Program-made: the position numbers and the translations under genes
Notes under the pieces: model-generated
Database searches by the model: none
What the model saw: the letters and a program-made list of their open reading frames with translations, nothing else
Told to the model about the DNA's origin: nothing
Assembly: GCA_965661685.1 (NCBI GenBank)
Contig: CBFIET010000122.1
Location: 27,270 to 91,269, forward strand
DNA length: 64,000 nucleotides
Source: Planctomycetota bacterium
GTDB taxonomy: Bacteria; Planctomycetota; UBA8108; UBA1146
Direction: 5' to 3'
In this document: piece by piece, positions 1 to 27,764 of the stretch
Position numbering within the stretch: the first letter of the stretch is position 1
Layout: every line of letters begins with the position of its first letter

Positions 1-990
1 GGACAGCTTCTTCCGAGCCGCAAGGAGCAGGTGGTGATCGGTGACGATGGTGCCGTGCGGTTGGGATTCGAGTTGAAGGAAGAGTCGGAGAATGTCGTCC
101 TGCAGCAATTCGCCAGGGCCATCGGCTGGCGCGTCGCTGCAAGCTGGTTTCCGCAACGCCCCACTCCACTGTTGCTGATCGGAGACCTGCCGGAGAAAAG
201 TCTCGATTCTCCCGTACAGGTGTTTTCCGGAGATTCGACCACCAGTTCCAGCGATCGATTGCGTGATCTACAGCGATGCAGCGGAACCGAGATCACCATC
301 GGAAAGGGAAAGGAACAGTTGGTCCTCTCCTTCCGCAATCCCGTGCACTTCTCGGTGATCCCTGACGTCGACGGGCATGGAGCACAACTGTGTGCTGATG
401 CCGGCGTGGTGCTGGCAGGATCTGCACTCGATCTTTCCATCGCAGCAAGCAGTGAGCGAGAAGAGGGGCGGGTCCAGGCGATTGTTGAAAAGATCGATTC
501 GCTGCTGGCGAAACCCGATGAAGGTGCAGCCCAGAATCTGATCAACGACGCTCGGAATGCCTTTCCGTGGCGCGAAGACCTCGAGCGAAAGATGGTCGAG
601 AGAGAGAACCTGATCCAGATCGAAGTGGATGCTGCCTTCGCCCAGATCGAGGCGGTCGTCGCTGATGCCGACAATTACCCCGGCGCCCCGACCGGGCAGT
701 ACCTGAAACGGATCTGCGAGGCAGCGGCGGTTCGCTTCAGGGGTCTCAAGCCTGGAGCACTCTCCGGGGAGATCCTCTCCTCGATGGAGGAGCAGCAAGC
801 TGCGGCCAGGGGCGTCGAGGAGGAAGACGAGATCGGTCGCCTGCTCGCCAGGGGGCGCGCTGCACTGGGACGCAATCGTCACGAGGTGGCTAAATTGTAC
901 TTCCAGTGGGTGGTGGAGCACCACCCGTCAACCGCTGGATCCGAAACTGCGCAACAGGAACTGAAACTGATCGAAGCGAGGGGTAACTGA
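1..990 (+). CDS. Hypothetical protein with a coiled-coil/TPR-like C-terminus; 5'-partial at the window edge
   Basis: Open frame runs to position 1 with no upstream stop. Its TGA stop overlaps the ATG of the next gene (ATGA), indicating co-transcription with the pseudopilus operon. No recognisable family motif. Confidence 0.45.
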   Translation, partial: GQLLPSRKEQVVIGDDGAVRLGFELKEESENVVLQQFARAIGWRVAASWFPQRPTPLLLIGDLPEKSLDSPVQVFSGDSTTSSSDRLRDLQRCSGTEITIGKGKEQLVLSFRNPVHFSVIPDVDGHGAQLCADAGVVLAGSALDLSIAASSEREEGRVQAIVEKIDSLLAKPDEGAAQNLINDARNAFPWREDLERKMVERENLIQIEVDAAFAQIEAVVADADNYPGAPTGQYLKRICEAAAVRFRGLKPGALSGEILSSMEEQQAAARGVEEEDEIGRLLARGRAALGRNRHEVAKLYFQWVVEHHPSTAGSETAQQELKLIEARGN

Positions 991-6114: not shown

Positions 6115-6741
6115 ATGAAAGCTTCTTCCCAATCGGGTTTCACCCTGGTCGAGTTACTCGTGGTGATCGCCATCATCGGAGTGCTGGCCGGTCTGGGAAC
6201 CCGGATGCTCGGCTACGCGACCAAGAGTAGTGCCATCGGCCTCGCAGAACAGGAGATGCAGCGACTGGTCCTGGGTGTCGAGACTTACACCCTCGACTTC
6301 GGTGATTTTCCTCCGTCGTCGATGGAGCGAGATTACGAGATCTCCGGAAACGGGCTCGATGAGGGGATCGAGAGCCTGGTTGCGCACCTCGCCAGCCGCT
6401 CGCGAGGTCGTTCCTATTTCGAGTTCAAGGAAGAGCACATCGAGAATCTCGACGAGGATCGGATGACCAATAGCGATCTCAAGGAAAAGATGAACTGGGT
6501 CTTCGGAGACGACCAGTTGCGAGAGTATGTCGATCCCTGGGGGGTTCCCTACGTCTACATCCACAACAGGGATTACAACAGCGAATTCTCGGTCACACAG
6601 GAGTCTGGGCCGGTGATGGTGACCGCTGGGATGTCGGAGAAAACGGCGACCCATCACGAGCCTCTTCGTTTTCAGATATGGTCCGCCGGTCCCGATGGAA
6701 TCCATCAAAACGGTGGCGGGGATGATGTTTCAGCATGGTGA
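6115..6741 (+). CDS. gspG: Major pseudopilin GspG (type II secretion)
   Basis: Class III signal with G-FTLVELLVVIAIIGVLAGL and Glu at +5. C-terminal GspG signatures DPWGVPYVY and IWSAGPDG...GGGDDVSAW are present. Confidence 0.85.
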   Translation: MKASSQSGFTLVELLVVIAIIGVLAGLGTRMLGYATKSSAIGLAEQEMQRLVLGVETYTLDFGDFPPSSMERDYEISGNGLDEGIESLVAHLASRSRGRSYFEFKEEHIENLDEDRMTNSDLKEKMNWVFGDDQLREYVDPWGVPYVYIHNRDYNSEFSVTQESGPVMVTAGMSEKTATHHEPLRFQIWSAGPDGIHQNGGGDDVSAW

Positions 6742-8126
6742 AGAGCGATACACGATCTAACCATGGAATCACGCTGATCGAGCTGCTCGTGGTGCTCTCG
6801 ATCCTGTCCGTGATTCTGGGTATGTCGGTATCGGTCTTTCGTTCCTTCGGCGACGCTCAAACGCTTGAGGTCGCTTCCAGTAGCGTTTCATCTACCGTCA
6901 GGGCAGCCAGGAACTGGTCGATCTCTTCCGGAATGCCCAGCAGAATTCTGGTCGATCCCGACCTTCGCAAGGTGACCGCCTTCGGCTTTCAACTGGTCGG
7001 ATCGTGGGACTTCGAGGACCTGGCAGGGGAGTCGCAGGGCAATGCCCTCGAGAGAGGCACCACCACATCCGGCGCGTACCGGCTTGAAGCGGAAGTTGTC
7101 GGGCGAGTGGAGCCGTGTCGTGGCTCCATCGGGGTCGGGGCGCACTTCGTCGATGAAGGTGCCTCCTTTCGAGCTCGAAATCTCCCCAGTTTTCATGGAC
7201 GCAACGGTGTCTCCATCGAAGCGTGGGTGAATTTCTGGAAGCCTCCCTGGCAAGTAGAAGATGGAATCGAACCGACTGGCGGTTTCTCCGATCCCAGGCG
7301 TGAGATGCGTCTCGCAGTACTCGGGATCCCACGTTCCTTCGAGATGGGATTGCTCGGTGATGGGGCGGTTTATTTCGAGGTAGGGGATCCGGAACGGGCC
7401 ATCGAAGGGGAATTCATCCGTGCTCAGACTGAGGGTGCTGTGGTGATTCCTGACCGCTGGGTACACCTCAGGGCCACCTTTGACGGAGTTGCACTGGTCA
7501 TCGAGGTGGACGGTGTCGAATTCGACTGGGTTCCTCAAGGATTCGAACTCGCCGAGCAGTGGCCACCGTTGCCGAGCGAGGTTCCTGTCAGTGATGCGGA
7601 TCTGTGGATCAGCCATCCCGATCGTTTCTTTCTCGGTGCACTGGACCAACTGGTGTTGCGTGTTGCCACCGAGCCGAACGTGACCGAATTGCCGCTGGAT
7701 ATCGAGCTGCTGGGAGCCACTTCACTGATTCATCTCGATAGCCGCGGAGCACTCGATCCTCTGCGTCACAATGAACCGGTGGTGATTCACATCGCAGAGG
7801 TCGGCGACCTCGTCCAGCTAGAAGCTGCCGATGGTACAGCCGTGGCGAAGGAGAGCTTCAGGGATCGGATGCGGAGAGAGCGGCAGGAACGCCAGGATCG
7901 TGACGACAAGATCGAAAAAGCTTTTGGAGATCCCATCGCAGATCTGATGCATCATCTTGAAAACTGGGAAACGGATCCGCAGACGCTGCTAGGCGATGAT
8001 TCGGAACCAGATGTCTTCGTTCCACTTGCACCTGGGATTCACTTCGGTGTCGGCGAAATCGATGGAGTATCGGTGTTGAGACTTCACAACGTGGTCATCG
8101 ACCTGACGGGAGCGATCCGTGGTTGA
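6735..8126 (+). CDS. Large minor pseudopilin (GspH-like prepilin N-terminus) carrying a LamG/concanavalin-like domain
   Basis: Prepilin-type N-terminal methylation motif G-ITLIELLVVLSIL. 463 aa, against ~180 aa for a typical GspH. The central region is LamG-like (WVHLRATFDGVALVIEVDG). Overlaps both neighbouring genes. Confidence 0.7.
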   Translation: MVKSDTRSNHGITLIELLVVLSILSVILGMSVSVFRSFGDAQTLEVASSSVSSTVRAARNWSISSGMPSRILVDPDLRKVTAFGFQLVGSWDFEDLAGESQGNALERGTTTSGAYRLEAEVVGRVEPCRGSIGVGAHFVDEGASFRARNLPSFHGRNGVSIEAWVNFWKPPWQVEDGIEPTGGFSDPRREMRLAVLGIPRSFEMGLLGDGAVYFEVGDPERAIEGEFIRAQTEGAVVIPDRWVHLRATFDGVALVIEVDGVEFDWVPQGFELAEQWPPLPSEVPVSDADLWISHPDRFFLGALDQLVLRVATEPNVTELPLDIELLGATSLIHLDSRGALDPLRHNEPVVIHIAEVGDLVQLEAADGTAVAKESFRDRMRRERQERQDRDDKIEKAFGDPIADLMHHLENWETDPQTLLGDDSEPDVFVPLAPGIHFGVGEIDGVSVLRLHNVVIDLTGAIRG

Positions 8127-11100
8127 ACGTCGTCCCCAATCAGAAGTTGGTATGGCACTATTGATGGTGATTCTGGTGCTGGCTGCCCTCGCCGCCATCG
8201 GAACGCCCTTCGTCATCTCGATGAAGTTGCAGGAGAATGGAGCGGCTCGGTCGGTGGCGCAACAGCGTGCCCATCTCGGTGCACGCAGCGCCAGAAGTCA
8301 TGCCATCAGTCATCTGTTCGATACGCACCACAGTCGTGAGCGAGACCTCTGGGTACCCGGAATGGAGGCTCCCGATCTGGTCGATTCTGCCGACGAACTC
8401 GAGATCGAATTTCCCCCCGGGTTTGTCGCATCGGCTGTCGTGGGAGATGGTCCTCTCCCGATGCAAGCCCGTGGTGTCTCCGATCTGATCCTCGATTCCC
8501 ATGTCACCGATGAACAGGGCAAGGTCAATCTCAACAGCGCCATGCCCAATCTGATCGGCAATCTTCTGGCGGGAAGTCACCTCTCTGTCGATATCAAGTA
8601 CGAGGATGTACTCACCGAACTGCCTCTGGATGACACATCGAGTTTCCCTGTCGACGATGATCCCGATACTGTCGACGGAGTGGTGGTGATCCTCAATCCG
8701 ATTTTCTTCACCGTCGAGGCGGTGTCTTACACGGGAAAGACCGAAACCGCACTCACCGGCATTTTTCGCGGCCAGTACCTATCCGGTACCTGGGAGCATC
8801 AGAAGGGGTGGCCCGTCTTCGATCTTCGTGGCCTGAAGGTCTTCCTGCATCGGTTGGCCAATCTTTCCGATGGTGAGATTGCCACATTCCGAACACCGAT
8901 CGGGTTGCGCCAGATCGCCGACTGGTCGGTGATTCCGTACTTCCTGCAAACCCTCGCGGTACTCGGGCTCAATCTGGAAAACATGGCGGAGTGGGGGCTT
9001 TCGCCGGAGATGCTGGTGCGTGCCGGTATCGATCCGAAGATGATGCAGAGGGAACCTGAAGAGGTTGACGAAGCGGAGTACCGTCGGTCACGCAAGTTGC
9101 TTCTCGACAACAACATTCCCAAGGAAGTGGTCGAGCTGGTCGAATCGATTCGAGGCAAGAACGCCATCATCGAGGCAGCCAAGTTCGCGGAGGATCTAGG
9201 CCTCGATAAGGCTCGTGGAAATGCCTTCAAGGGCTTCTACATCACCTTCGTGGCTCCCGAGTTGAAGAAGTTGAAGGCGCACTCGAAGGGATACACTCCG
9301 AAGGCGATCATGGCTTACGAGCAGATCAACAACATCCCGGGGATGGAGACCTTCTCTGCAGCAGATTTTGAACAGATCAGGGATCTCGTCACCACAACCT
9401 CGACCCAGCCACGGGAGTGGTCTCAGGAGCAGATGGTCGAGGGGGAGATCACCAACAGCGCGCTGCTCGGTGTACCTCAGATGCGATTGCCCAGATACGA
9501 CTTCTTCAATCCCGGTACCGTGGTACGGATCCGTAGCATCGAGGATCCGTCAAAGGTGGAGTACGGTCTCGCCGCCGGGGCATTCCCAACACCTCGCGGT
9601 GGATTTCGAGGGATGGGTCAGGGGAGCATCTTCCAGGGAGGGGTCATCCTCAAGGAGCCTCTCAAGCTGAAATGGCGCGAGAGAGAGGCGATGGTCAGTG
9701 CCGCTCTTCGGCATCCCATCAACATCAACACCGCCCCACGTCGGGTCATCCAGGCGGTTCTCACCGGTCTCTCGGTAGACCGTTTCTCGAGGGAGTTCAA
9801 CGGTGTCACCGTCAAGGAGGCTCGGGATCTCACCGATCGCCTGATGGAAGCGATGCCGATCTCCGGTTTCGCTGCATTCCGCAGCATCGTCGAAAGTGCT
9901 CAACTCGCTGGAGATCTTGACGGAAGAGATTCGGAGGCGATCCTGATCAATGCCTTGAATCCGAATCAGCCTCGCCTGTCGATCTCGACCACCAGTTTCT
10001 GCTACTCGACATCCGATGTGTACACCGTGGAGTCCACGGGTGTGTCGAGGAGTCCGGTAGGAAGTCCCGTGGCTACCGTTCGCCTCCGCGAGGTGATCGA
10101 GGTCGCTCCTCCTGATTCCCTTTCACTGCGTCTTCAAACCCAGGAAGACTGGGCGAGCATCTTTGCCACTCGCGATCCTGGTCAGGGTAGATTCACCCGC
10201 TTCAACAGTACCTTCGTTCCGGGTAGGGCATCCAACCTGATGGTGTGCGGACCGATTCCATTGCAGAGAACCAAGTTCACCGGGCCCTCGCTCGATCAGG
10301 GGTCACTGAGAGGCGAGGCACTTTCCAGCGAGAACAGTTCGGCTCGATATCGTCATGGCTCCGTCGCCTTGCTCGAGGTGGAGCATTTTTACGACACGCT
10401 GGAAGGTTACGAACTGGAGGACGGTCCCTGGTCACGCTCGGTGGTGATCGAGAACCAGCAGGAATCAGGTGGAAGGCGTGGAAGGCGATCGGTTCCACAA
10501 CCGCAAGTATCCGCTGTTGAAGAAGTCCCGGAAGTGGTCACTACGATTCCGGCGATGGTCGATTTCTGGTACCGACCACGGTGGGGTTCCCGTAGTGGCA
10601 ACAAGATGATCTTCGATTCCTGTGGTCCTACCCTCGAGCGACACCGCAATCGAGTTCGACTCTTCTTCGCCGGGGACAGGCAAGAACTGGTGCTTCAGGT
10701 CTTCGACGAGACGGGGGCTGCCATCGCCTGGAAGTCGGACGTATTGCCCGCTGCGGAGGTTCGATACCCGGTGACCAACGTCACCTTTGCCGATGACACC
10801 TGGTATCACATCTCTGCCGGCTGGAAGTCCACCAGGCCTGGAGATCTGACCTTGATGATCGATCGCAGACCGGTCGGCAAGCAGTCCTGGCTTTCGCGAC
10901 TCGGTGGTGGTCTTTCCTTTGGCGGAACCCGTGTGTCGATCGAGGACATCGAGATTGCCAATCGATTCCCGCCCAGCGGCACCCTGCTGGTGGGAAGCGA
11001 GGCGATCGATTACTCCGGTAAGGAGGGCTCCTCCTTCATCGTGCGGGCTCCAGGCCCCAATGGTGAGCCTCCGCTGGGGCGTGGTGTTCGAGGCACGGTG

Positions 11101-13851
11101 CGTTCCGCTCATCCTGCCGGCACCGCAGTTCGCTTGCTCGGTTATTCGCTGCAACTGGCCAGCTCCGATCCCAATATCGGTGTTGCTGACTCGACCAATC
11201 GCCTGATCATCGGCCCGGCAGGTGCGACACTGGGTATCGATCAGGCCGCAACGATGAGGGTTCAGAGTTTCAACTCTTCCAATGGTGCCGTGGAACTGGC
11301 TCCCAGCAGTTTTGCCTATGCCAGTACGCAGATCCTCTCAGGGGTTGTCGGGCAGGCGGTCAGCACCCTGGAACTGGAGCCTTTCAGTGCCGCTTCCACC
11401 TCACTGCTCGTGCAGACAGAGGGAACTCACCCCCTTGAACTGGGCTTCCCTCCCAGGGGATACATTCACATCGAACAGTGGACGCAACAGGGAACCGAGC
11501 CGAGTCGCAGGGTTGCCGTTGAGTTCGCGAAGTACTCGACCATCACACCGGGACCAATTCCGGGCTTGTACCGTTTTACCGGCATGGGCCGGGCGATGCT
11601 CGGTTCGGTGGCAACACAGGGCATCAACAACGCCGAATCGAACACAAGACTCTTCGTCCGGGGAGTTTCCCTCGAGTCGGACGCAAGCAATCTGGATAAT
11701 GCCTATGCGCCATCGGGAGTGATCCAGATCGCTCGGCCTCCCGGCCTTCTCGCCGGAGGTGTACTGAACGATTGCGAATGGATTCGCTACACTTCCATCG
11801 CCGAGGGCAAGTTTTTCATCTGCGATCCGGATGCGTCGTCCGTCTTCAGGGGCTTTACCGGTGACCGCTACACCGCATCTTCCGATCCGTTCCGGCAAAA
11901 TAGGCCGATCTGGGACCGAGCAGGCATCGTCAATCATGTTGCGGGGCAGGAAATCATCCAGGTGGTCCGGACCGTGGGATCGAAAGCTGGTTTTGGCGAC
12001 CAGGTGATCCTCGGGGATGGATATGGAGATCCCACCCAGCGGATGGTCGAGGCCGCTCCGCTGCGGGTCTGGAAGGTTCGGGAGACGACTACCGGAGTCT
12101 ACGCGAGTTTTTACTGGTCTCCCGAGGGGCTCTATACCACTGCACAGGATCCACGGATCCGGCGCTTTCCAAGTGGCGGATTGCCGTCCACCTCGGAGGG
12201 GCGCATCGTCTTCGGCGGCTCGATGATCTCCGGAGATGGCGTTGCCGCTCCGGGAACACTCGATGAGGTCCGCTTCAGCCGTCTCGACACCAGCGATGTC
12301 GACATGTACGCCTTTCCCGTAGCGACCGGGGGACGCTTCATCACCGACACCATCTCCGATTCCTCTGGAGCCAGCAGTGGAGTGCAGCGGCGAGTGATCC
12401 GTAGCCACTTCACCAGGAATGATTCGGAACAAGGTGGTGGGGGCATCGACAGGATCGCCTTGCTTGCCCGTTCCCGATTGATCTCTTCCGCCACTCAGCC
12501 AACCGGGGAGGGGGCTGCTCCGGGCGGAGTCACCCGCAGTTTTTCAGTGGGGGATCCGAGCAAGTTCGGCATGGGAAGCACGGAAGGCCTGCTCCAGGTC
12601 GATTCGGAAATCTTCCATTACTCCCACGAATCCAATCAACAGCAGCAAGACGCCGTGATCGTTCAACTGGTGCAGGATTTACCGCGAGATCCGTTCATCG
12701 ATGAGAGTGAGTTGGGTGACGGAGATACGGTTCCGTACAACCCTGATCGAGATCTCCGGGTCGAGATGGTTTCCGATGTGAAGGTCGACAACACCGGCAA
12801 CCTGCCTCCCGGCGGAGGTTTCCTCGAGTTCATCACAGGCTCTACCAGTGAAGTGATCTTCTACCAGCAAGCGACCAACGGATACCTGAGGAATGTACTG
12901 CGTGGACAGCTGGGATCACCGGTGGGTGGCTATGTATACCAGTACAACTACCTCGATGCAGAAGGTGTGACGCAGACGATCACCAACACTCATCGTTTGC
13001 GACTACTGCCCAGTCGAGAGATCGATGTTCTGACCCGGGGAATGCTCTCTTCTGCCCGGGAGGATGGTCAACTGGGACATGAGTCGTTGATGCCGCTTCC
13101 CTCGATCCCGGTGGCCAGGTTGGCGGGGCAATTGCGTGAAGGTGGATTGACCCTCGACATCCTGGGTGGTGACGACGATCAACCTTCCAGTAGCCTCCGT
13201 GCTTTCGGTAACAATGAAGGATACCTGGTCGTCGATGACGGCATCGCCACCACTCCTGACGAAATCATCGCCCATACTGGAGTTTCCGGGAACGGTTTCG
13301 GATTGTTCCGGGACGATCGAAGCGGAAAGCCGATCTTCCGTGGACGATTCGGGACCGGCGAGATGGTGAGTTCAACCAGCGCTCCTCCACGAGGCACGCC
13401 AGTCATCGAGTTGATGGCTCGCAATCACGACCGCTTCCAGTACATGGTCGATTCGAAGGATCTTCAGTACTTCGAGCGTGCCTGGACGATGCCGGGAACG
13501 ATGTGGGATCGCATCGGCTGGGAGGTGGAGCAAACCACCCGCGGAGCCACTCCGGCATTCGTGCAGATTTATGCCCGGTTCGACGGCAAACCCTCCTGGG
13601 ATTCCGAACCTACAAATTCACCTGGAGGACTGTACCGGTTCGATCAGCCAGACCAGGAGAACCTGTTGGGGCAGTACGGAGATTCACTGGAAGTCAGGGT
13701 TTATTACTACCATCAGCGGGGTGCCTACGGGCGAAACTCCAGTTCCGGTCAGTGGAGCGATGAGTGGAAACACCTACCGGTCCTCAAGAACCTGAAGATT
13801 GAACACCGCAAGGAGTGGCGAGTGCTCCATCACGAGGAGTTCCCCTACTGA
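8119..13851 (+). CDS. Giant (1910 aa) GspK/PilX-like minor pseudopilin fused to a very large beta-rich extracellular region
   Basis: GspK-type N-terminus (basic residues, then G-MALLMVILVLAALAAI with no Glu at +5). ComEA/GspK-like helix-hairpin-helix region (HPININTAPRRVIQAVLTGL). An internal LamG-like segment (WYHISAGW...LMIDRRPVG). GTG start overlaps the upstream stop, and the stop overlaps the downstream ATG. Confidence 0.7.
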   Translation: MVERRPQSEVGMALLMVILVLAALAAIGTPFVISMKLQENGAARSVAQQRAHLGARSARSHAISHLFDTHHSRERDLWVPGMEAPDLVDSADELEIEFPPGFVASAVVGDGPLPMQARGVSDLILDSHVTDEQGKVNLNSAMPNLIGNLLAGSHLSVDIKYEDVLTELPLDDTSSFPVDDDPDTVDGVVVILNPIFFTVEAVSYTGKTETALTGIFRGQYLSGTWEHQKGWPVFDLRGLKVFLHRLANLSDGEIATFRTPIGLRQIADWSVIPYFLQTLAVLGLNLENMAEWGLSPEMLVRAGIDPKMMQREPEEVDEAEYRRSRKLLLDNNIPKEVVELVESIRGKNAIIEAAKFAEDLGLDKARGNAFKGFYITFVAPELKKLKAHSKGYTPKAIMAYEQINNIPGMETFSAADFEQIRDLVTTTSTQPREWSQEQMVEGEITNSALLGVPQMRLPRYDFFNPGTVVRIRSIEDPSKVEYGLAAGAFPTPRGGFRGMGQGSIFQGGVILKEPLKLKWREREAMVSAALRHPININTAPRRVIQAVLTGLSVDRFSREFNGVTVKEARDLTDRLMEAMPISGFAAFRSIVESAQLAGDLDGRDSEAILINALNPNQPRLSISTTSFCYSTSDVYTVESTGVSRSPVGSPVATVRLREVIEVAPPDSLSLRLQTQEDWASIFATRDPGQGRFTRFNSTFVPGRASNLMVCGPIPLQRTKFTGPSLDQGSLRGEALSSENSSARYRHGSVALLEVEHFYDTLEGYELEDGPWSRSVVIENQQESGGRRGRRSVPQPQVSAVEEVPEVVTTIPAMVDFWYRPRWGSRSGNKMIFDSCGPTLERHRNRVRLFFAGDRQELVLQVFDETGAAIAWKSDVLPAAEVRYPVTNVTFADDTWYHISAGWKSTRPGDLTLMIDRRPVGKQSWLSRLGGGLSFGGTRVSIEDIEIANRFPPSGTLLVGSEAIDYSGKEGSSFIVRAPGPNGEPPLGRGVRGTVRSAHPAGTAVRLLGYSLQLASSDPNIGVADSTNRLIIGPAGATLGIDQAATMRVQSFNSSNGAVELAPSSFAYASTQILSGVVGQAVSTLELEPFSAASTSLLVQTEGTHPLELGFPPRGYIHIEQWTQQGTEPSRRVAVEFAKYSTITPGPIPGLYRFTGMGRAMLGSVATQGINNAESNTRLFVRGVSLESDASNLDNAYAPSGVIQIARPPGLLAGGVLNDCEWIRYTSIAEGKFFICDPDASSVFRGFTGDRYTASSDPFRQNRPIWDRAGIVNHVAGQEIIQVVRTVGSKAGFGDQVILGDGYGDPTQRMVEAAPLRVWKVRETTTGVYASFYWSPEGLYTTAQDPRIRRFPSGGLPSTSEGRIVFGGSMISGDGVAAPGTLDEVRFSRLDTSDVDMYAFPVATGGRFITDTISDSSGASSGVQRRVIRSHFTRNDSEQGGGGIDRIALLARSRLISSATQPTGEGAAPGGVTRSFSVGDPSKFGMGSTEGLLQVDSEIFHYSHESNQQQQDAVIVQLVQDLPRDPFIDESELGDGDTVPYNPDRDLRVEMVSDVKVDNTGNLPPGGGFLEFITGSTSEVIFYQQATNGYLRNVLRGQLGSPVGGYVYQYNYLDAEGVTQTITNTHRLRLLPSREIDVLTRGMLSSAREDGQLGHESLMPLPSIPVARLAGQLREGGLTLDILGGDDDQPSSSLRAFGNNEGYLVVDDGIATTPDEIIAHTGVSGNGFGLFRDDRSGKPIFRGRFGTGEMVSSTSAPPRGTPVIELMARNHDRFQYMVDSKDLQYFERAWTMPGTMWDRIGWEVEQTTRGATPAFVQIYARFDGKPSWDSEPTNSPGGLYRFDQPDQENLLGQYGDSLEVRVYYYHQRGAYGRNSSSGQWSDEWKHLPVLKNLKIEHRKEWRVLHHEEFPY

Positions 13852-14933
13852 TGCAGCGCCAGGACGGAATGACACTGATCGAGATCCTCGTTGCTCTCGG
13901 CATCTTCGTGATGCTGGGGAGTGGGCTCGTGATGTTTCTTCGCGACGGCATCGCTACCTGGCAGGTGGGCGAGTCTCGACGAGAGGCAGTCGAACGAGCC
14001 GAGGCGATCCTCGAACCGCTCGCGGCCGACCTGCGTTCTCTCTTCACTCAGCCAGATCCCGGTCCTGGTGGTGGTTTCGTCGATGTCTTGCTTCTCTGTG
14101 ATCGAGACCAGCATCGGCGTCCTCGCCTCCGTATGGTCAGCGCTCTTGATGAGGAGACGAGAAATCCCATCAGCCGCATTGCAGGATCACTCACCGGGGG
14201 GGTCGCCGAGATCGATTACATCAACGATTCGATGGAAGCGAAACTCGGAATCTTACGGGCTCCCGGAGGGCTCTGTGAGGTCTCCTATTCGATGGGTCCT
14301 GAAGCGGATTCGGAGCTGCTGTGGCGGGGATTCAAGAGCCCGATCGGCGGCCCCGGCAGTGTATTCATCGATTCAAACCTCGCTCCCGATGAGGATGGTA
14401 CTCCCAGGAGAAGCCGTCCCATCGCAGATGGTGTTCTCTACATGGAGTGGTCCTTCTGGGGGGGAGATCGACGGCACTGGGTCGGGGGGAAGGCGCAAGC
14501 TCCCATCAAGGTCTGGGATTCGACACGGGGAATCATCAAGATGCCGAAGGAGAGTGGAGTCTCGTGGGATCCATCGAGTCGTGACGACCCATTCGACGAT
14601 GTGTTTCCCGACACGGTGGAGATCTTGCTGGTATTGAGGCCCAATCGATCGAAGGCGTTGGCGCGCCTCTCCGCCGATCTCGATGATTCTGCACGAACCA
14701 TCCGGGTCGACAATACCGCACAGTATCCAGTGACCCCCGATTCCTACATTCGCATCGATGCGGAATGGATTCGCGTCGGTGAGATCGGTCCTCGTTCCTT
14801 CAACGACTGCCAGAGAGGGGCTCGAGGAACGACTGCTGTCGATCATCGAAGAGGAACTTCCGTCGTGCACGGATCCAACTTTCACAAGACGGTCAGAATC
14901 CCCACCTCACGCGATCCAGGAGGTGTTCGTTGA
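13851..14933 (+). CDS. Minor pseudopilin (GspJ-like)
   Basis: Prepilin motif G-MTLIEILVALGIFVMLGSGL with Glu at +5. The internal ATG at 13851 is preferred over the track start 13815 because it overlaps the upstream stop as TGATG. Confidence 0.65.
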   Translation: MQRQDGMTLIEILVALGIFVMLGSGLVMFLRDGIATWQVGESRREAVERAEAILEPLAADLRSLFTQPDPGPGGGFVDVLLLCDRDQHRRPRLRMVSALDEETRNPISRIAGSLTGGVAEIDYINDSMEAKLGILRAPGGLCEVSYSMGPEADSELLWRGFKSPIGGPGSVFIDSNLAPDEDGTPRRSRPIADGVLYMEWSFWGGDRRHWVGGKAQAPIKVWDSTRGIIKMPKESGVSWDPSSRDDPFDDVFPDTVEILLVLRPNRSKALARLSADLDDSARTIRVDNTAQYPVTPDSYIRIDAEWIRVGEIGPRSFNDCQRGARGTTAVDHRRGTSVVHGSNFHKTVRIPTSRDPGGVR

Positions 14934-15355
14934 AGTCCAATCCTGGTCAGCACGGTTTCAGTTTACTCGAGGTGGTGGTTGCGCTGGGAATCCTCATCGT
15001 CGGGGTCAGTTCGGCGATCTCGCTCTTTGCTGCAGGCACTGCAGCGCATAGTCGTGCGGTTGACCGAGTGCGATCGATCGAGGTCTGCGAGGTGGTGCTC
15101 GCGTCGCTGGAGGGCGCGTTACGAGACGGGGCCACCCTCACCCAGATCATCAACGATCCACCGTGGCAACCTTTGCTGGTACGCTGGCCCGGAATCGAGG
15201 TCGATCTGGAGTACGGGACCATCGACAAGGATGAGTATACCGACCTGTTGCTGGTGGAGATTCACGTGCGCTGGATCTCTCGGGGGCAGGAATCGCAAGA
15301 GATCTTCCACCAACTGGTGCCCAGGATGAGAAGTGTCCGACTGGATCGTCCCTGA
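14930..15355 (+). CDS. Minor pseudopilin (GspI-like)
   Basis: Prepilin motif G-FSLLEVVVALGILIVGVS. 141 aa, a typical GspI size. Four-nucleotide overlap with the upstream gene. Confidence 0.65.
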   Translation: MKSNPGQHGFSLLEVVVALGILIVGVSSAISLFAAGTAAHSRAVDRVRSIEVCEVVLASLEGALRDGATLTQIINDPPWQPLLVRWPGIEVDLEYGTIDKDEYTDLLLVEIHVRWISRGQESQEIFHQLVPRMRSVRLDRP

Positions 15356-16479: not shown

Positions 16480-16778
16480 AACGTAGTGTCGTTGCAAGAT
16501 GGCGAGAATTCAACCGACGGTTATTGAACAGGAGGTGTCGATGATGTAAGGATGTTGCTCGGGAAAGATCCGTACGGTTCGGATCGGAAGTGTGGTGAAA
16601 ATCCACCGCGGTGCCGCCGCTGTAACTGGGGACGAAACCTGCACCTCTCGTGCCTTGAATGGCCCGGGAGAGCCACTACCGAAACGTGGGAAGGCGCAGG
16701 CGGAGAATGATCCAGAAGCCAGAAGACCTCCCGTGAATCAGGTCCCCGAAAGGGGTTTCTCCGAGCAGGGATGACTGG

Positions 16779-18173
16779 ATGTTACATATCTGTGCGGAGT
16801 GCTGCGAAAGCACTCCATCTCTCGTTCGATTGCAGGGTTCGCCCTGGAATCTGACGATCTTTGTTCTTCTTTTGTCGCTGGTCTTCGGTCACTCTTCACT
16901 GAGTGCTGGAGATCCTGTCGCTGCGGTGAGCACGACGATCCCCTCTTACCAGATCGATTCGCATCCCTATTCGGTCGTCCTCGATCCCGCCGGTGACCTG
17001 GGTTACATCTCCGTTTGTGGTGAGGTGGCACCGTTCAATGAGCCGGTCTATCTGCACAGTGGATACCACGTCATCGAGTTCGATGCACACTCCCTCGAGG
17101 TTCTCCGCACTTTCGAGGTCGGATTCTATCCGACCGAAATGCTTCATGTCGGTGATGAATTGTGGGTGAGTTGTTCGACGGTCAGCGCCCTTCATCGCAT
17201 CGACCTCGACTCCGGAAGTGTTTCGCTTGTTCCCTTTGATGACAGTAGCGGAGGTGAAATCGGATTCCCTTCGGGACTGGCAGAGGGGTGGGGCGGGGAG
17301 ATCATCGTCGCCTCCAACGGCGGAAGTTTCGATGGTTCCAATGAGAACATCATCGTCATAGATCCCGTCACCGAGGAAGTGATTCAACGATATGAAATCG
17401 CCGGCGGAATCTCCAGCATGGCGGTCCTCGATGACGGCACCTTGCTGGTTCCCGTTGGATTTCCTGGCGATGATTTCACCGCACCTCCCTCCATCGTCTG
17501 GATCGATGGGGCAGAAGGAAGTGTCGTCGCGGAAATCTCTCTCGATCTGGACACCTCTGACTTTCCCGCTCCCAGTGATCTGGCCGTGCTCGACGACGGC
17601 ACCGCCCTGGTCACGATTTTCGGAGGCAGTTCCCTCGTCTATCGAGTCGATCTTCAGACGAGAGAACTCCACTCATCCATCGCGGTTCCATCCGGGGATC
17701 CTGTTCAATCCGCTGTGGCCGCAGACGGCCTCGACAGTTTTCTGGTCGCCGATTATTTCAGTGGATTGATCCATCGTATCGATCTCGACCAGGGTGACGT
17801 GCTGGAAGTGCTGACTGGTAATCAACTGCCGAATCGACTCGTCATCTCCGGTGAACGCATTTTCACCGCCCAGCAGGGACAGGAACTTGTCACCGTGCAT
17901 GCTGGAGACGGCGCCTTCATCCGAGGGGATGTGAATGTCGATGGCCGGATTGATCTGGCGGATCCGGTAATGCTATTGCAGTGGCTGTTCGTCGGTCCGC
18001 TGCTTCCCTGCGAGGATTCCGCTGACTTCGATGACAATGGAATTCTCGACATCTCCGATGGGATTCAGTCGCTGATGTTCCTGTTCGTGCAAGGCCCTAC
18101 GCCAGCTTTCCCCTTTCCGGTTGCTGGCGGAGACATGACTTCAGATGTTCTCGATTGCATCGCTCTCCCTTGA
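16779..18173 (+). CDS. Secreted beta-propeller protein with a C-terminal type I dockerin module
   Basis: Signal peptide. Repeated beta-propeller blades. Two Ca-binding dockerin loops at the C-terminus: GDVNVDGRIDLADPVMLLQWLF and ADFDDNGILDISDGIQSLMFLF. Confidence 0.65.
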   Translation: MLHICAECCESTPSLVRLQGSPWNLTIFVLLLSLVFGHSSLSAGDPVAAVSTTIPSYQIDSHPYSVVLDPAGDLGYISVCGEVAPFNEPVYLHSGYHVIEFDAHSLEVLRTFEVGFYPTEMLHVGDELWVSCSTVSALHRIDLDSGSVSLVPFDDSSGGEIGFPSGLAEGWGGEIIVASNGGSFDGSNENIIVIDPVTEEVIQRYEIAGGISSMAVLDDGTLLVPVGFPGDDFTAPPSIVWIDGAEGSVVAEISLDLDTSDFPAPSDLAVLDDGTALVTIFGGSSLVYRVDLQTRELHSSIAVPSGDPVQSAVAADGLDSFLVADYFSGLIHRIDLDQGDVLEVLTGNQLPNRLVISGERIFTAQQGQELVTVHAGDGAFIRGDVNVDGRIDLADPVMLLQWLFVGPLLPCEDSADFDDNGILDISDGIQSLMFLFVQGPTPAFPFPVAGGDMTSDVLDCIALP

Positions 18174-18210
18174 TGGGGTAATAATCCACTCCCAGGCAGA
18201 TTGGATCAAA

Positions 18211-19464
18211 ATGTTGAAGACACAGATGTTGGCACTGGTTGCGATTCTCCTGGTTCATGCTCCCGTAGCTGGACAGGGTAGTTGGTTCGGCGACGGAGAG
18301 TTTCTCTGGTCGAGTGAGTCAGTAGACGTGGTACCGGTATCCGATCTTCCAGGTCCGATCCGTTCCATCGCTCGAACCGCCTCGGGTGGTGCCTGGATTG
18401 CTCTCGCCGACGAAGCGCAGGTGATCCGTGTCGACTCCTCCGGTGCCATCCTGGAAGTGATCGACACCTCGATGGGGGTCCAATCGCTGGCTGTCGATTC
18501 GACGGGAAGGGTGTGGGGCACTCGTCCTGGAATGAATGATGTGATCCACATCGAGTCCTCCCAGGGAATCTTGAACTCGTACCCGGTGGGTGCGGTCCCT
18601 TACGGTATAACCATCGATCGAGAAGGCTCTGTATGGGTCAGCTGTTCCTACTCCAATGAAATCTACGTTCTTTCCGCTGCTGGAGAGGTTCACTTCATCT
18701 ATCCAGTGGGCTTCTTCCCGACAGGTATTGCCGCCGCTCGTGAAGGCGGAGTGTGGGTTGCTGAAAAGGACTCGATGAGGCGCCTCGACCTGTCCGGAAA
18801 CACCGCCTGGCAATCGAGTATCGGCAACTTCCCCATCGGCGTTACCACCGATCTACAGGGGCGAGCCTGGTTCTCCTGCAAGTTCAGTGACCTGGTCGTG
18901 GTAGTCGGAAGCACGGGCGTGGAGATGACCATTGATGTTCCATCACTACCGGTAGGGATCAGCGGTCGAGGAGATGGAACCGTCTCCGTCATCTGTGACG
19001 GAGATCCGTCGCTGGTGGTGATCGATTCCAACGGAAGTGTCTTGGCAATCGAGGATCTTGCCGACCCCGCTGGATCTGGAGATCTGAGCGGGTTGCAGAG
19101 GGCGATCCTGGTCGAGCCTCTCGGCGATGCCGATGGCGATCTGGTCACCAACGAACTGGAGGCTGAACTCGGGTACAACCCGCTCGACGCGTCCTCCTCT
19201 CCCGCCATCTTCATCCGGGGAGACGTGGACAGGAGTGGAACTCTCAATCTTGCAGATGGAGTCAATTCGTTGCTGGTCCTGTTCGGAATCCAGGAGAGCG
19301 ATTGCCTCGAAGCTCACGACTTCGACGATGACGGATCGTTGACCCTGGCGGATCCGATCCAGTTGCTGACGCATCTGTTCGGAAACGGCCCGGGACCTGC
19401 TGCGCCATTTCCCGAACATGGCCCCGATCCGACCCCGGCACAGGGGTTTCCCTGTTCACCCTGA
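18211..19464 (+). CDS. Secreted NHL/Vgb-like beta-propeller protein with a thrombospondin-type DADGD motif and a C-terminal dockerin module
   Basis: Signal peptide MLKTQMLALVAILLVHAPVAGQG. Vgb-lyase-like blade repeats (P.GI..D..G.VW). Dockerin loops GDVDRSGTLNLADGVNSLLVLF and HDFDDDGSLTLADPIQLLTHLF. Confidence 0.65.
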   Translation: MLKTQMLALVAILLVHAPVAGQGSWFGDGEFLWSSESVDVVPVSDLPGPIRSIARTASGGAWIALADEAQVIRVDSSGAILEVIDTSMGVQSLAVDSTGRVWGTRPGMNDVIHIESSQGILNSYPVGAVPYGITIDREGSVWVSCSYSNEIYVLSAAGEVHFIYPVGFFPTGIAAAREGGVWVAEKDSMRRLDLSGNTAWQSSIGNFPIGVTTDLQGRAWFSCKFSDLVVVVGSTGVEMTIDVPSLPVGISGRGDGTVSVICDGDPSLVVIDSNGSVLAIEDLADPAGSGDLSGLQRAILVEPLGDADGDLVTNELEAELGYNPLDASSSPAIFIRGDVDRSGTLNLADGVNSLLVLFGIQESDCLEAHDFDDDGSLTLADPIQLLTHLFGNGPGPAAPFPEHGPDPTPAQGFPCSP

Positions 19465-26069: not shown

Positions 26070-27764
26070 ATGCATCGTCCTGGAATCTATCCGAGAGTCG
26101 TGGCTCTCTTGCTGTGGAGCGTTGTTTTCCTGCAATTGACGCTTCCTGCCGAGGCCCAGAGTCTCCTCCAGTTGAAGGAGAATTTTGCCCGGGAACGGTC
26201 ACTCGAGGTGATCGACCGTATCGGCACGTTGCAAAAGATCGGTGAGCTCGACACCCTGGAAGCATCCGAGTTTCTTGCAGGCATCATCTCCGATCGACGG
26301 GAAGAGACCTCGATGATCGAATCCGCCGTGCGGATGGTCTCCCTGCATGGCCACGGCGTTGGCCTCAAGGCGGTGGTGGAGTCGGGATTCTTGATCCTGC
26401 CTGAACGGTCTCACTGGGTCATCCGCGACTGCTGGGACAAGGATCTCTCCGAGAGCGAGGAGAAATACCTCGCCGAAGAGGGGCTGCTGAAGGTGCCTGC
26501 ACTCGCTGTGGAGCCACAGAATATCGTCCTCTCCATCGGCCTCAGGATCGATCGCGAGGGTGTCGGTGAAGCCGCTGGCAAGCTGCTGGGTAATCGCAAG
26601 ATTCCTCCCCACAACCAGTCGTTGATCGTCGATATGATTCGTTTGCATCGGGTTGAATCGGCCAGCAAAAAACTGGGAAAACTGTTCAGGATCAACGATG
26701 CCAAGTTGCAAGTGTCGGTACTGAAGGCATTGCAGCAGCTGGAGGCAGAAGATCAGAGCCGGACCTTTCACAAGGCGTTGAAGAGTAAGCACTGGACTGT
26801 CAGAGCTGCAGCGGTGGATATCTTCGGCGATACCCGCGACCCGGAGGTGATCAAGATCTTGATCCCGATGTTGAAGGATCCCTTCGACGAGGTTCAAGTC
26901 GCTGCTGTGCAGGCGATGAGAAAGATCGGCGGCAAGGAGGTTGTCGAGGCTTTCATCGGGCAGATCGGTAAGAAAGGGGGGCGTGTACTCGATGATATCT
27001 GCGATGCACTGATCTGGCTTACCGGCGAGGATTACGGACCCAGTAAGGTGTCCTGGACCTCCTGGTGGGACCGTGAGGGGGAGGATGCGGAGATCCGGGG
27101 GATCACCAGAGATGAGTACGAGAGAATCCGAGCCGAGTCTGCGAACAGTACCACGGGGACTTATTACGGCCTTCGGGTCATCAGCCGTTTCGTTACCTTC
27201 ATCGTCGATATCTCCGGTTCGATGGAGGAACCCTACGAGGTCGACAGCGTCAAATTACCCGGTGGGCGCAAGGGCCGGGGCACCGACGTCAACGGCGGAC
27301 AGAAAGGCAGCAAGAAGCGTGAGAAACTGGCCAAGATCGAGGTGGCTCGACGGGAGCTGTTGAGGGTCATCGATGCGATCCCCGACGGAACGCAGTTCAA
27401 TATCATCGCCTTCGAGAGCACCTTTACCCCGTGGCGGCCAGCACTGGTCGAGATGGAGGACGGGATCCGTCATGACGCTCTCGATTACGTGCGGAAGTTG
27501 ACGCCGAGAGGGATGACAAATGTCTACGACACCCTCACCTCTGCTCTCGATGATCCCGAGGTGAACACCATCTACTTTCTCAGTGACGGAGCGCCGACGA
27601 TGGGGAAGATCGTTGAACCCGATGGAATCCTTGCTGAGATTCGTGCCTTGAATCAATTACGCAAGGTGAAGATCCACACCATCGGTTTTCATCTCGATCC
27701 AGCGGCATCGATCTTGATGCGCAAACTGGCCGAGGAGAATCACGGAACCTTTGTCGAGAGGTAA
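26070..27764 (+). CDS. Secreted HEAT-repeat + von Willebrand factor A (VWA) domain protein
   Basis: Signal peptide. PBS-lyase/HEAT-like repeats (HWTVRAAAVDIFGDTRDPEVIKILIPMLKDPFDEVQVAAVQAM). C-terminal VWA with MIDAS motif DISGSM...T...D. Paralogue at 61709..63055. Confidence 0.65.
   Translation: MHRPGIYPRVVALLLWSVVFLQLTLPAEAQSLLQLKENFARERSLEVIDRIGTLQKIGELDTLEASEFLAGIISDRREETSMIESAVRMVSLHGHGVGLKAVVESGFLILPERSHWVIRDCWDKDLSESEEKYLAEEGLLKVPALAVEPQNIVLSIGLRIDREGVGEAAGKLLGNRKIPPHNQSLIVDMIRLHRVESASKKLGKLFRINDAKLQVSVLKALQQLEAEDQSRTFHKALKSKHWTVRAAAVDIFGDTRDPEVIKILIPMLKDPFDEVQVAAVQAMRKIGGKEVVEAFIGQIGKKGGRVLDDICDALIWLTGEDYGPSKVSWTSWWDREGEDAEIRGITRDEYERIRAESANSTTGTYYGLRVISRFVTFIVDISGSMEEPYEVDSVKLPGGRKGRGTDVNGGQKGSKKREKLAKIEVARRELLRVIDAIPDGTQFNIIAFESTFTPWRPALVEMEDGIRHDALDYVRKLTPRGMTNVYDTLTSALDDPEVNTIYFLSDGAPTMGKIVEPDGILAEIRALNQLRKVKIHTIGFHLDPAASILMRKLAEENHGTFVER

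Follow-up and report, generated by a model that had tools for sequence, protein, structure and literature searches.

What role can a pilin of 1910 amino acids (aa) play in a bacterium? The question is raised by a stretch of 64,000 nucleotides (positions 27,270 to 91,269 of contig CBFIET010000122.1, forward strand; hereafter the window) from an uncultured marine planctomycete, in which one open reading frame (ORF) encodes a protein whose mature form has a computed mass of ~208 kDa. A first inspection of the letters (the sequence-only reading) had proposed an enlarged relative of GspK, possibly carrying a fused tip adhesin. Our follow-up analysis leads to a related answer. The giant is probably a minor pilin of the K class (GspK/PilK/PilX-type) in a type IV filament system, and its C-terminal body a built-in tip adhesin.

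A conserved family without annotation

The ORF at 8119-13851 stands as first proposed, with a GTG start and no internal stop. At its GTG it overlaps the end of the upstream gene by 8 nt, its TGA has one base in common with the ATG of the next gene, and the GC content is even across the region (0.57-0.60). A protein search returned 45 homologues of 1200-2190 aa, all from Planctomycetota metagenome-assembled genomes (MAGs), and a profile-based second search gave essentially the same set. Among the 45, 28 are colinear with the giant over 99-100% of their length at 35-94% identity. An alignment of 44 family sequences is likewise colinear end to end, a 1910-aa copy with 94% identity recurs on 11 contigs (of which one spans 452 kb), and a scan of one genome per species yielded 192 tblastn-confirmed stretches, nearly all in Planctomycetota MAGs. 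Unusual length is the sole ground we found for suspecting a chimera of assembly or annotation, a danger that the sequence-only reading had itself raised; its probability is negligible, and we regard it as ruled out by the 11-contig copy, the species-representative scan and the even GC content, and because colinear, full-length relatives extend from 94% down to ~24% identity in many independent assemblies.

Judged by its sequence, the giant is thus a member of a conserved, unannotated family. Database labels read just "hypothetical" or "LamG domain-containing", and a cluster look-up gave "hypothetical protein" names from MAGs. Two copies, 78% and 40% identical and each lying within the operon described below, come from MAGs labeled "Bacillota bacterium" (QNYK01000100.1) and "Proteobacteria bacterium" (JAFMMO010000098.1); these are probably mis-binned planctomycetal contigs.

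The N-terminal third is built like GspK

The protein begins VERRPQSEVG/MALLMVILVLAALAAIGTPFVISM (the slash marks the predicted cleavage site), which is a short basic leader with Gly at −1 followed by a hydrophobic alpha-1N. A hydrophobicity scan found its sole hydrophobic segment at aa 6-37. Gly occupies −1 in 35 of the 36 non-gap rows of the family alignment, and residue +5 is L, M, T or V in 44/44 sequences. The GspK/PilX-type N-terminus without Glu at +5 that the sequence-only reading had recognized therefore holds for the whole family. By contrast, all four flanking prepilin-type genes have Glu at +5, so that the giant is the only one of five pilins without it.

An AlphaFold2 (AF2) model of aa 1-720, with the family alignment as input, reached a predicted local distance difference test (pLDDT) of 80.2 and a predicted template modeling score (pTM) of 0.79. 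In fold searches, this module matches 3CI0_K and 5VTM_X, and it shows what distinguishes the GspK fold, a pilin sheet with an inserted alpha-domain bearing helix-hairpin-helix motifs. The best-conserved N-terminal positions are D131, E132 and K135 (DEQGKVNLN) and N535, N537, T538 and A539 (NINTA), and by sequence these are the two GspK helix-hairpin-helix signatures. In the first, D131, E132 and K135 are invariant, and Q133, G134, N148 and L149 are at least 90% conserved. The second contains NINTAPRRVIQAVLTGL (aa 535-551), the segment singled out in the sequence-only reading; it is nearly invariant across the family and coincides with the sole Pfam match in the giant, to T2SSK (PF03934; E 0.03, 15.1 bits, aa 534-555). 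In the closing strands of the sheet, G648 is invariant and R657 at least 90% conserved.

Hidden Markov models (HMMs) point the same way. The NCBIfam equivalog T2SS_GspK (NF037980) matches aa 11-141 at profile positions 3-106 (E 4.7e-7, 29.6 bits), GspK is the sole NCBIfam family matched by five distant relatives (E 5e-10 to 4e-4, 20-39 bits), and sub-threshold GspK matches occur in 6/6 family members tested. A full-length family profile run against all PDB sequences gave no match at E<=10, so sequence alone gives no link from the family to a solved structure. When the family was aligned by hhalign with the single GspK of E. coli K-12, just the N-terminal helix aligned (GspK aa 3-65, probability 68%), which is too weak to be used alone. 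The assignment of the N-terminal third as a GspK/PilK-class minor pilin is nevertheless supported, by sequence and by model, because of the fold match, the sub-threshold HMM matches in all six members, the lack of Glu at +5, and the four neighbors that have it. The GspK homology on which the sequence-only reading hinged is therefore present. Its dimensions need revision. The GspK-like module extends to ~aa 665, not ~350, because three domains are inserted in or beside the alpha-domain; the body behind it has ~1245 aa rather than ~1700; and the whole protein is ~6 times, not ten times, as long as GspK/XcpX, the tip minor pseudopilin of type II secretion systems (T2SS; chain K of PDB 3CI0, chain X of 5VTM; 327 aa for E. 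coli K-12).

The C-terminal body looks lectin-like

Modeled in isolation, the body is compact and beta-rich (pLDDT 86.5, pTM 0.85). As a whole, it found no global PDB match in fold searches. It is predicted to hold a LamG/CBM-like domain and repeated small beta-barrels. The LamG-like module, already suspected from the letters, is backed by fold searches and by PF13385 annotations on several homologues; Pfam did not detect it in the window copy at E<=0.1. The LamG region and the terminal beta-sandwich are the best-conserved parts of the body. Such lectin-like content is consistent with the earlier idea of a fused tip adhesin.

An exhaustive phmmer search of 1.84 billion representatives with the body matched 324 clusters at E<=0.001, 216 of them at E<=1e-10. 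In long matches, the LamG region falls at ~residues 600-900 and the terminal sandwich lies at the C-terminal end, and distant relatives align query positions 980-1190 at their own C-termini. The fusion of pilin and body is apparently old and obligatory by this sequence evidence, because the NxNTA motif is present in 114 of the 139 matches of at least 1200 aa and because matches of 900-1200 aa mostly start mid-domain and look like fragments.

The giant lies in a conserved pilin operon

The surrounding cassette forms one translationally coupled operon, common to the window and its relatives (Table 1). The sequence-only reading had suggested looking for orthologous cassettes in other genomes, and we searched 76 related loci for them, L002 and L003 together with 74 that the genome scan supplied. 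By tblastn, G is present in 63 of these loci, H in 64, J in 55 and I in 48, and the pilin gene order is always G-H-K-J-I, in contrast to G-H-I-J-K in canonical gsp operons. The minor pilins of the cassette are all larger than E. coli GspH, GspI and GspJ. The 267-aa and 128-aa cassette proteins occur in 34/76 and 27/76 loci (tblastn, E<=1e-3), and the former has no Pfam family match.

Table 1. Features of the giant gene and its operon (window coordinates; a slash marks the end of a prepilin leader)
Feature	Position	Strand	Basis
Giant K-class minor pilin gene, 1910 aa, GTG start, internal stops 0	8119..13851	+	ORF and translation
Class III (prepilin) leader, aa 1-11, ends Gly11; predicted peptidase cleavage G11/M12	8119..8151	+	alignment
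Alpha-1 helix, aa 12-68: hydrophobic N-terminal half, then amphipathic half	8152..8322	+	AF2 helix 8-68; hydrophobicity; hhalign
GspK-fold module, aa 12-665, ~72 kDa, three insertions included	8152..10113	+	
First GspK signature VTDEQGKVNLNSAMPNLIGNLL, aa 129-150	8503..8568	+	conservation
Insertion 1: small beta-barrel, aa 152-235; first copy of E-x-I-x-Y ... RG repeat	8572..8823	+	
Insertion 2: helical domain, aa 236-423	8824..9387	+	AF2 secondary structure
Insertion 3: beta domain, aa 441-529	9439..9705	+	AF2 secondary structure
Second helix-hairpin-helix signature HPININTAPRRVIQAVLTGL, aa 532-551	9712..9771	+	
Closing beta-strands of pilin sheet, aa 634-661; candidate in-cis "plug" strand	10018..10101	+	AF2 strands 634-644, 650-661
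C-terminal all-beta body, aa 666-1910, 1245 aa, ~136 kDa	10114..13848	+	AF2
Putative LamG / ConA-like lectin jelly-roll, ~aa 760-942, boundaries approximate	10396..10944	+	
C-terminal long-stranded beta-sandwich, ~aa 1785-1898	13471..13812	+	AF2 strands
Conserved extreme C-terminal tail EWRVLHHEEFPY, aa 1899-1910	13813..13848	+	conservation; pLDDT ~50 for last 10 residues (isolated-body model)
FHA/YscD-like gene, 3' part; first gene of cassette	1..990	+	L002 and L003 gene tables
PilM/GspL-like assembly protein, 539 aa	990..2609	+	TIGR01175 pilM 2.7e-9; Amuc_1101 pilus family 1.8e-6
Two small conserved cassette proteins, 267 and 128 aa	2610..3799	+	tblastn
TPR protein, 772 aa	3796..6114	+	TPR families; type_IV_pilW 2.8e-7
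GspG-like major (pseudo)pilin, 208 aa, leader MKASSQSG/FTLVE	6115..6741	+	N_methyl 1.7e-8; T2SSG 8.5e-5; TIGR01710 1.7e-11
H-like modular minor pilin with LamG domain, 463 aa, leader ...NHG/ITLIE	6735..8126	+	N_methyl, Laminin_G_3; gspH and XpsH N-terminal matches
J-like minor pilin, 360 aa, leader MQRQDG/MTLIE	13851..14933	+	sequence; L002 gene call; N_methyl
I/PilV-like minor pilin, 141 aa, leader ...QHG/FSLLE	14930..15355	+	N_methyl; gspI 0.0013, pilV 3e-4

The sequence-only reading had placed GspI and GspJ immediately downstream. Two prepilin-type genes are indeed there, in the order J-like then I-like, and their putative identities draw on size, position and weak N-terminal HMM matches. 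That of I stays positional, because an I-like family profile run against the PDB matched just pilin N-terminal helices, at E>0.1. In the mechanical ORF list, the J-like gene begins at GTG 13815 and has 372 aa; a start at ATG 13851 yields a normal prepilin leader and the 360-aa product of the L002 gene call. In one relative (L007:15658-16767), the J-like gene has an in-frame stop codon, which may be a sequencing error or mark a pseudogene.

At the other end of the operon, the first 990 bases of the window are the 3' end of a gene that in L002, the 94% relative, encodes an 832-aa double-FHA/YscD-like protein; FHA matches also occur in L030 and L070. Upstream of the cassette, L002 (1-2872) has a gene for an FHA-GAF-sigma54-activator (674 aa) followed by the 832-aa gene, which by analogy with PilR-controlled pilins suggests sigma54-dependent regulation. 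An exact-sequence look-up of the PilM-like protein found no record. The C-terminal ~200 aa of the TPR protein are beta-rich (...AELWFDGIRIAKG...) and LamG-like by eye; if truly so, such domains would be present in three proteins of the operon.

Beyond the operon, a cobalamin riboswitch (RF00174, 64.5 bits) at 16544-16748 (+) lies directly 5' of ORFs 16779-18173 and 18145-19464 (+). These encode proteins of 464 and 439 aa, the second NHL/Vgb_lyase-like, and at the end of each are dockerin-like GDVNxDG motifs. In L030, too, the pilin cassette is followed by genes of this sort (Dockerin_1; Vgb_lyase/NHL). Putative B12-regulated, secreted propeller proteins adjoin the pilus operon.

Proposed role and alternative explanations

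The fold, signal features, domain content and conserved operon come from sequence and prediction, and for the mechanism we draw on what is known of type IV filaments. K-class pilins have no Glu5 and occupy the filament apex, where with I, J and H they prime polymerization of the major pilin (PMC13533445, PMC7541494). Modules grafted onto pilins are displayed at the tip (PMC8179133), and a minor pilin of S. sanguinis with a lectin module binds glycans (PMC9934059). By this logic, a prepilin peptidase encoded elsewhere would cleave the giant between G11 and M12, the alpha-1 helix would keep it anchored in the inner membrane, and it would join J, I and H in an initiation complex onto which the 208-aa G-like pilin polymerizes. 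Because it lacks Glu5, the giant would be the apical subunit, so its 136-kDa body would be carried on the filament tip and would serve there as a built-in adhesin, most likely for glycans. Fusion in cis would then functionally replace the PilC/PilY1 tip adhesin, which diderm type IVa pili have as a separate protein. The models offer two candidates for a plug strand between K and J: the closing strand 650-661, possibly continuing into 666-674, or the tail EWRVLHHEEFPY.

Several considerations weigh against this reading. First, both GspK HMM matches fall far short of their curated cut-offs, with 29.6 versus 130 bits for NCBIfam NF037980 and 15.1 versus 24.2 bits for Pfam PF03934. Second, tblastn with E. 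coli Gsp queries found no GspD, E, F or O in the 64-kb window, where nothing but pilin N-termini matched, or within 10 kb of the gene in the 76 loci. Genes for an ATPase, a platform protein, a secretin or a prepilin peptidase are absent within these limits. The assembly and export machine is thus unseen, and its motor, platform, peptidase and outer-membrane channel must lie elsewhere, if they exist. Third, the homologue and cluster searches and the species-representative genome scan found no cultured organism for the family. Fourth, we infer the tip complex of K with J and I, for which the co-conservation of the J and I genes is indirect evidence. Finally, a tip of ~208 kDa would need to pass through an outer-membrane channel, and LamG-type folds bind proteins as well. 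With these points counted, we still hold a K-class pilin with a built-in tip adhesin to be the probable answer.

If the filament were instead a T2SS-like pseudopilus, the giant would be a cap confined to the (enlarged) planctomycetal periplasm, and its body would handle cargo or the outer-membrane channel rather than act as a surface adhesin. A lectin-like body might, for example, push glycosylated or polysaccharide-bound substrates out, or pull them in. The closest structures are indeed T2SS GspK and XcpX, not PilK/PilX of type IV pili, and the putative major subunit is nearest GspG (TIGR01710 1.7e-11, Pfam T2SSG). Moreover, the 539-aa protein is laid out like GspL, with a PilM domain, a membrane segment and a periplasmic domain, and the in-cis closing strands resemble GspK, which bears its own plug strand (PMC13533445). 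However, the GspG and GspK matches are all sub-threshold and fall mostly on N-terminal helices. Matches to pilus families occur as well, to Amuc_1101 for the PilM-like protein and to PilW for the TPR protein. Neither a secretin nor GspC, GspE or GspF is encoded nearby, and lectin modules on both H and K are typical for adhesive modular pilins (PMC8179133, PMC9934059). We therefore consider a periplasmic cap unlikely, although it is the leading alternative.

The tip body could also be an enzyme displayed on a pilus, a polysaccharide lyase or hydrolase or a protease that degrades polymers. The body does match enzymes, but over ~160 aligned residues that belong to their non-catalytic CBM, lectin and N-terminal adaptor domains, and six family members matched no catalytic family in Pfam or NCBIfam, which makes this reading very unlikely. 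A GH16-type enzyme in particular was rejected, as the ExDxxE motif is not visible in the LamG region. Even less probable is a membrane-anchored periplasmic or cell-surface protein that uses a degenerate pilin-like N-terminus as a mere anchor, outside any filament. Weak HMM scores and an assembly machinery unseen nearby would suit such a protein, but conservation of Gly at −1 and of the entire GspK fold extends to relatives of ~24% identity, the giant is always embedded among four bona fide prepilin genes and PilM-like genes, and the tight translational coupling implies stoichiometric co-assembly.

Comparison with known systems

It is useful to contrast the giant with the tip proteins that it resembles. 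Relative to GspK/XcpX, it has three extra domains inside the K module and the 1245-aa body behind it. Its neighborhood includes a PilM/GspL-like gene, but no GspC, D, E, F or O gene adjoins it, so this is not a gsp operon. Because the structural and signal features of the K class are present whereas HMM scores (clearly under the family cut-offs), size and operon are not those of GspK, we file the giant as a divergent K-class modular pilin, set apart from GspK proper. It has the layout of modular pilins, where a pilin module at the N-terminus is followed by grafted non-pilin modules: the pilin module closes at ~aa 661, and the body comes next.

In diderm type IVa pili, PilC/PilY1 with PilK/PilX, like the proposed giant, place a ligand-binding protein of >1000 aa on a tip K-class pilin, and the K subunit primes assembly (PMC13533445; bioRxiv 10.64898/2026.09.18.752573; PMC7541494). 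By analogy, the giant may act like GspK/PilK and PilY1 in a single chain. It has no C-terminal PilY1/PilC beta-propeller domain, and we rejected it as a PilY1 homologue. Among the modular type IV pilins PilB (vWA) and PilC (ConA-like lectin) of S. sanguinis, it shares a lectin/LamG module with PilC, and the predicted tip location and adhesion role are the same (PMC8179133, PMC9934059). A classical case of this type is the 463-aa H-like pilin beside the giant. Those of S. sanguinis are small, non-K-class and monoderm, whereas the giant would be a diderm K-class cap pilin with a 1245-aa cargo, and neither its carrier nor its cargo is recognized by InterPro-type signatures. CpaL/TadG of Tad (type IVc) pili and ComZ of Thermus are, like the giant, K-position tip subunits with a large extra domain in the same chain (PMC13533445, PMC6561018).

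The Verru_Chthon cassette of Verrucomicrobiota (NCBIfam proteins A-D) is likewise part of the Planctomycetes-Verrucomicrobia-Chlamydiae (PVC) group and likewise sets several prepilin-type proteins beside one very large protein. Cassette A is the giant of that set, and the sequence-only reading had likened our protein to such PVC "pseudopilin cassette" giants. The G- and H-like neighbors weakly match the cassette D and C models through their N-termini, so such models are present in the library. The protein A model gave no NCBIfam match at E<=0.1 in the window protein or five relatives, and membership in cassette A was rejected.

Significance

The literature that we searched describes no giant K-class pilin and no such planctomycetal cassette, and offers nothing relevant beyond the modular-pilin papers. 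The modular-pilin concept itself is already known; everything past the fold and the gene context we infer. Two ways of equipping a filament tip were described in a pair of 2026 studies. In diderm type IVa pili, a separate PilC/PilY1 adhesin is joined to the K-class pilin via a C-terminal plug strand, and in monoderms, small modular pilins equip the tip (PMC13533445; bioRxiv 10.64898/2026.09.18.752573). If our reading is true, a third solution is used across a whole diderm phylum, in which the K-class cap is fused to an adhesin-sized body and H has a lectin domain. The giant is at least twice as long as the largest modular pilin of a 2021 survey (860 aa, PMC8179133), and its family lends itself naturally to testing the rules by which tip complexes assemble.

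A more specific version of this idea may be considered, although we think it quite unlikely. Planctomycetes are reported to have dextran-binding fibres that emerge from crateriform structures (PMC5394234). The family could form the tip of such polysaccharide-binding, pili-like fibres of Planctomycetota, as a 136-kDa multi-lectin "grappling hook" on a K-class pilin. A diderm type IV filament would then capture marine glycans or particles, and perhaps reel them in, without PilC/PilY1, and the conserved tail, folded back, would supply the plug strand between K and J. More broadly, the giant is a concrete candidate for the attachment to, or harvest of, polysaccharides by abundant marine planctomycetes.
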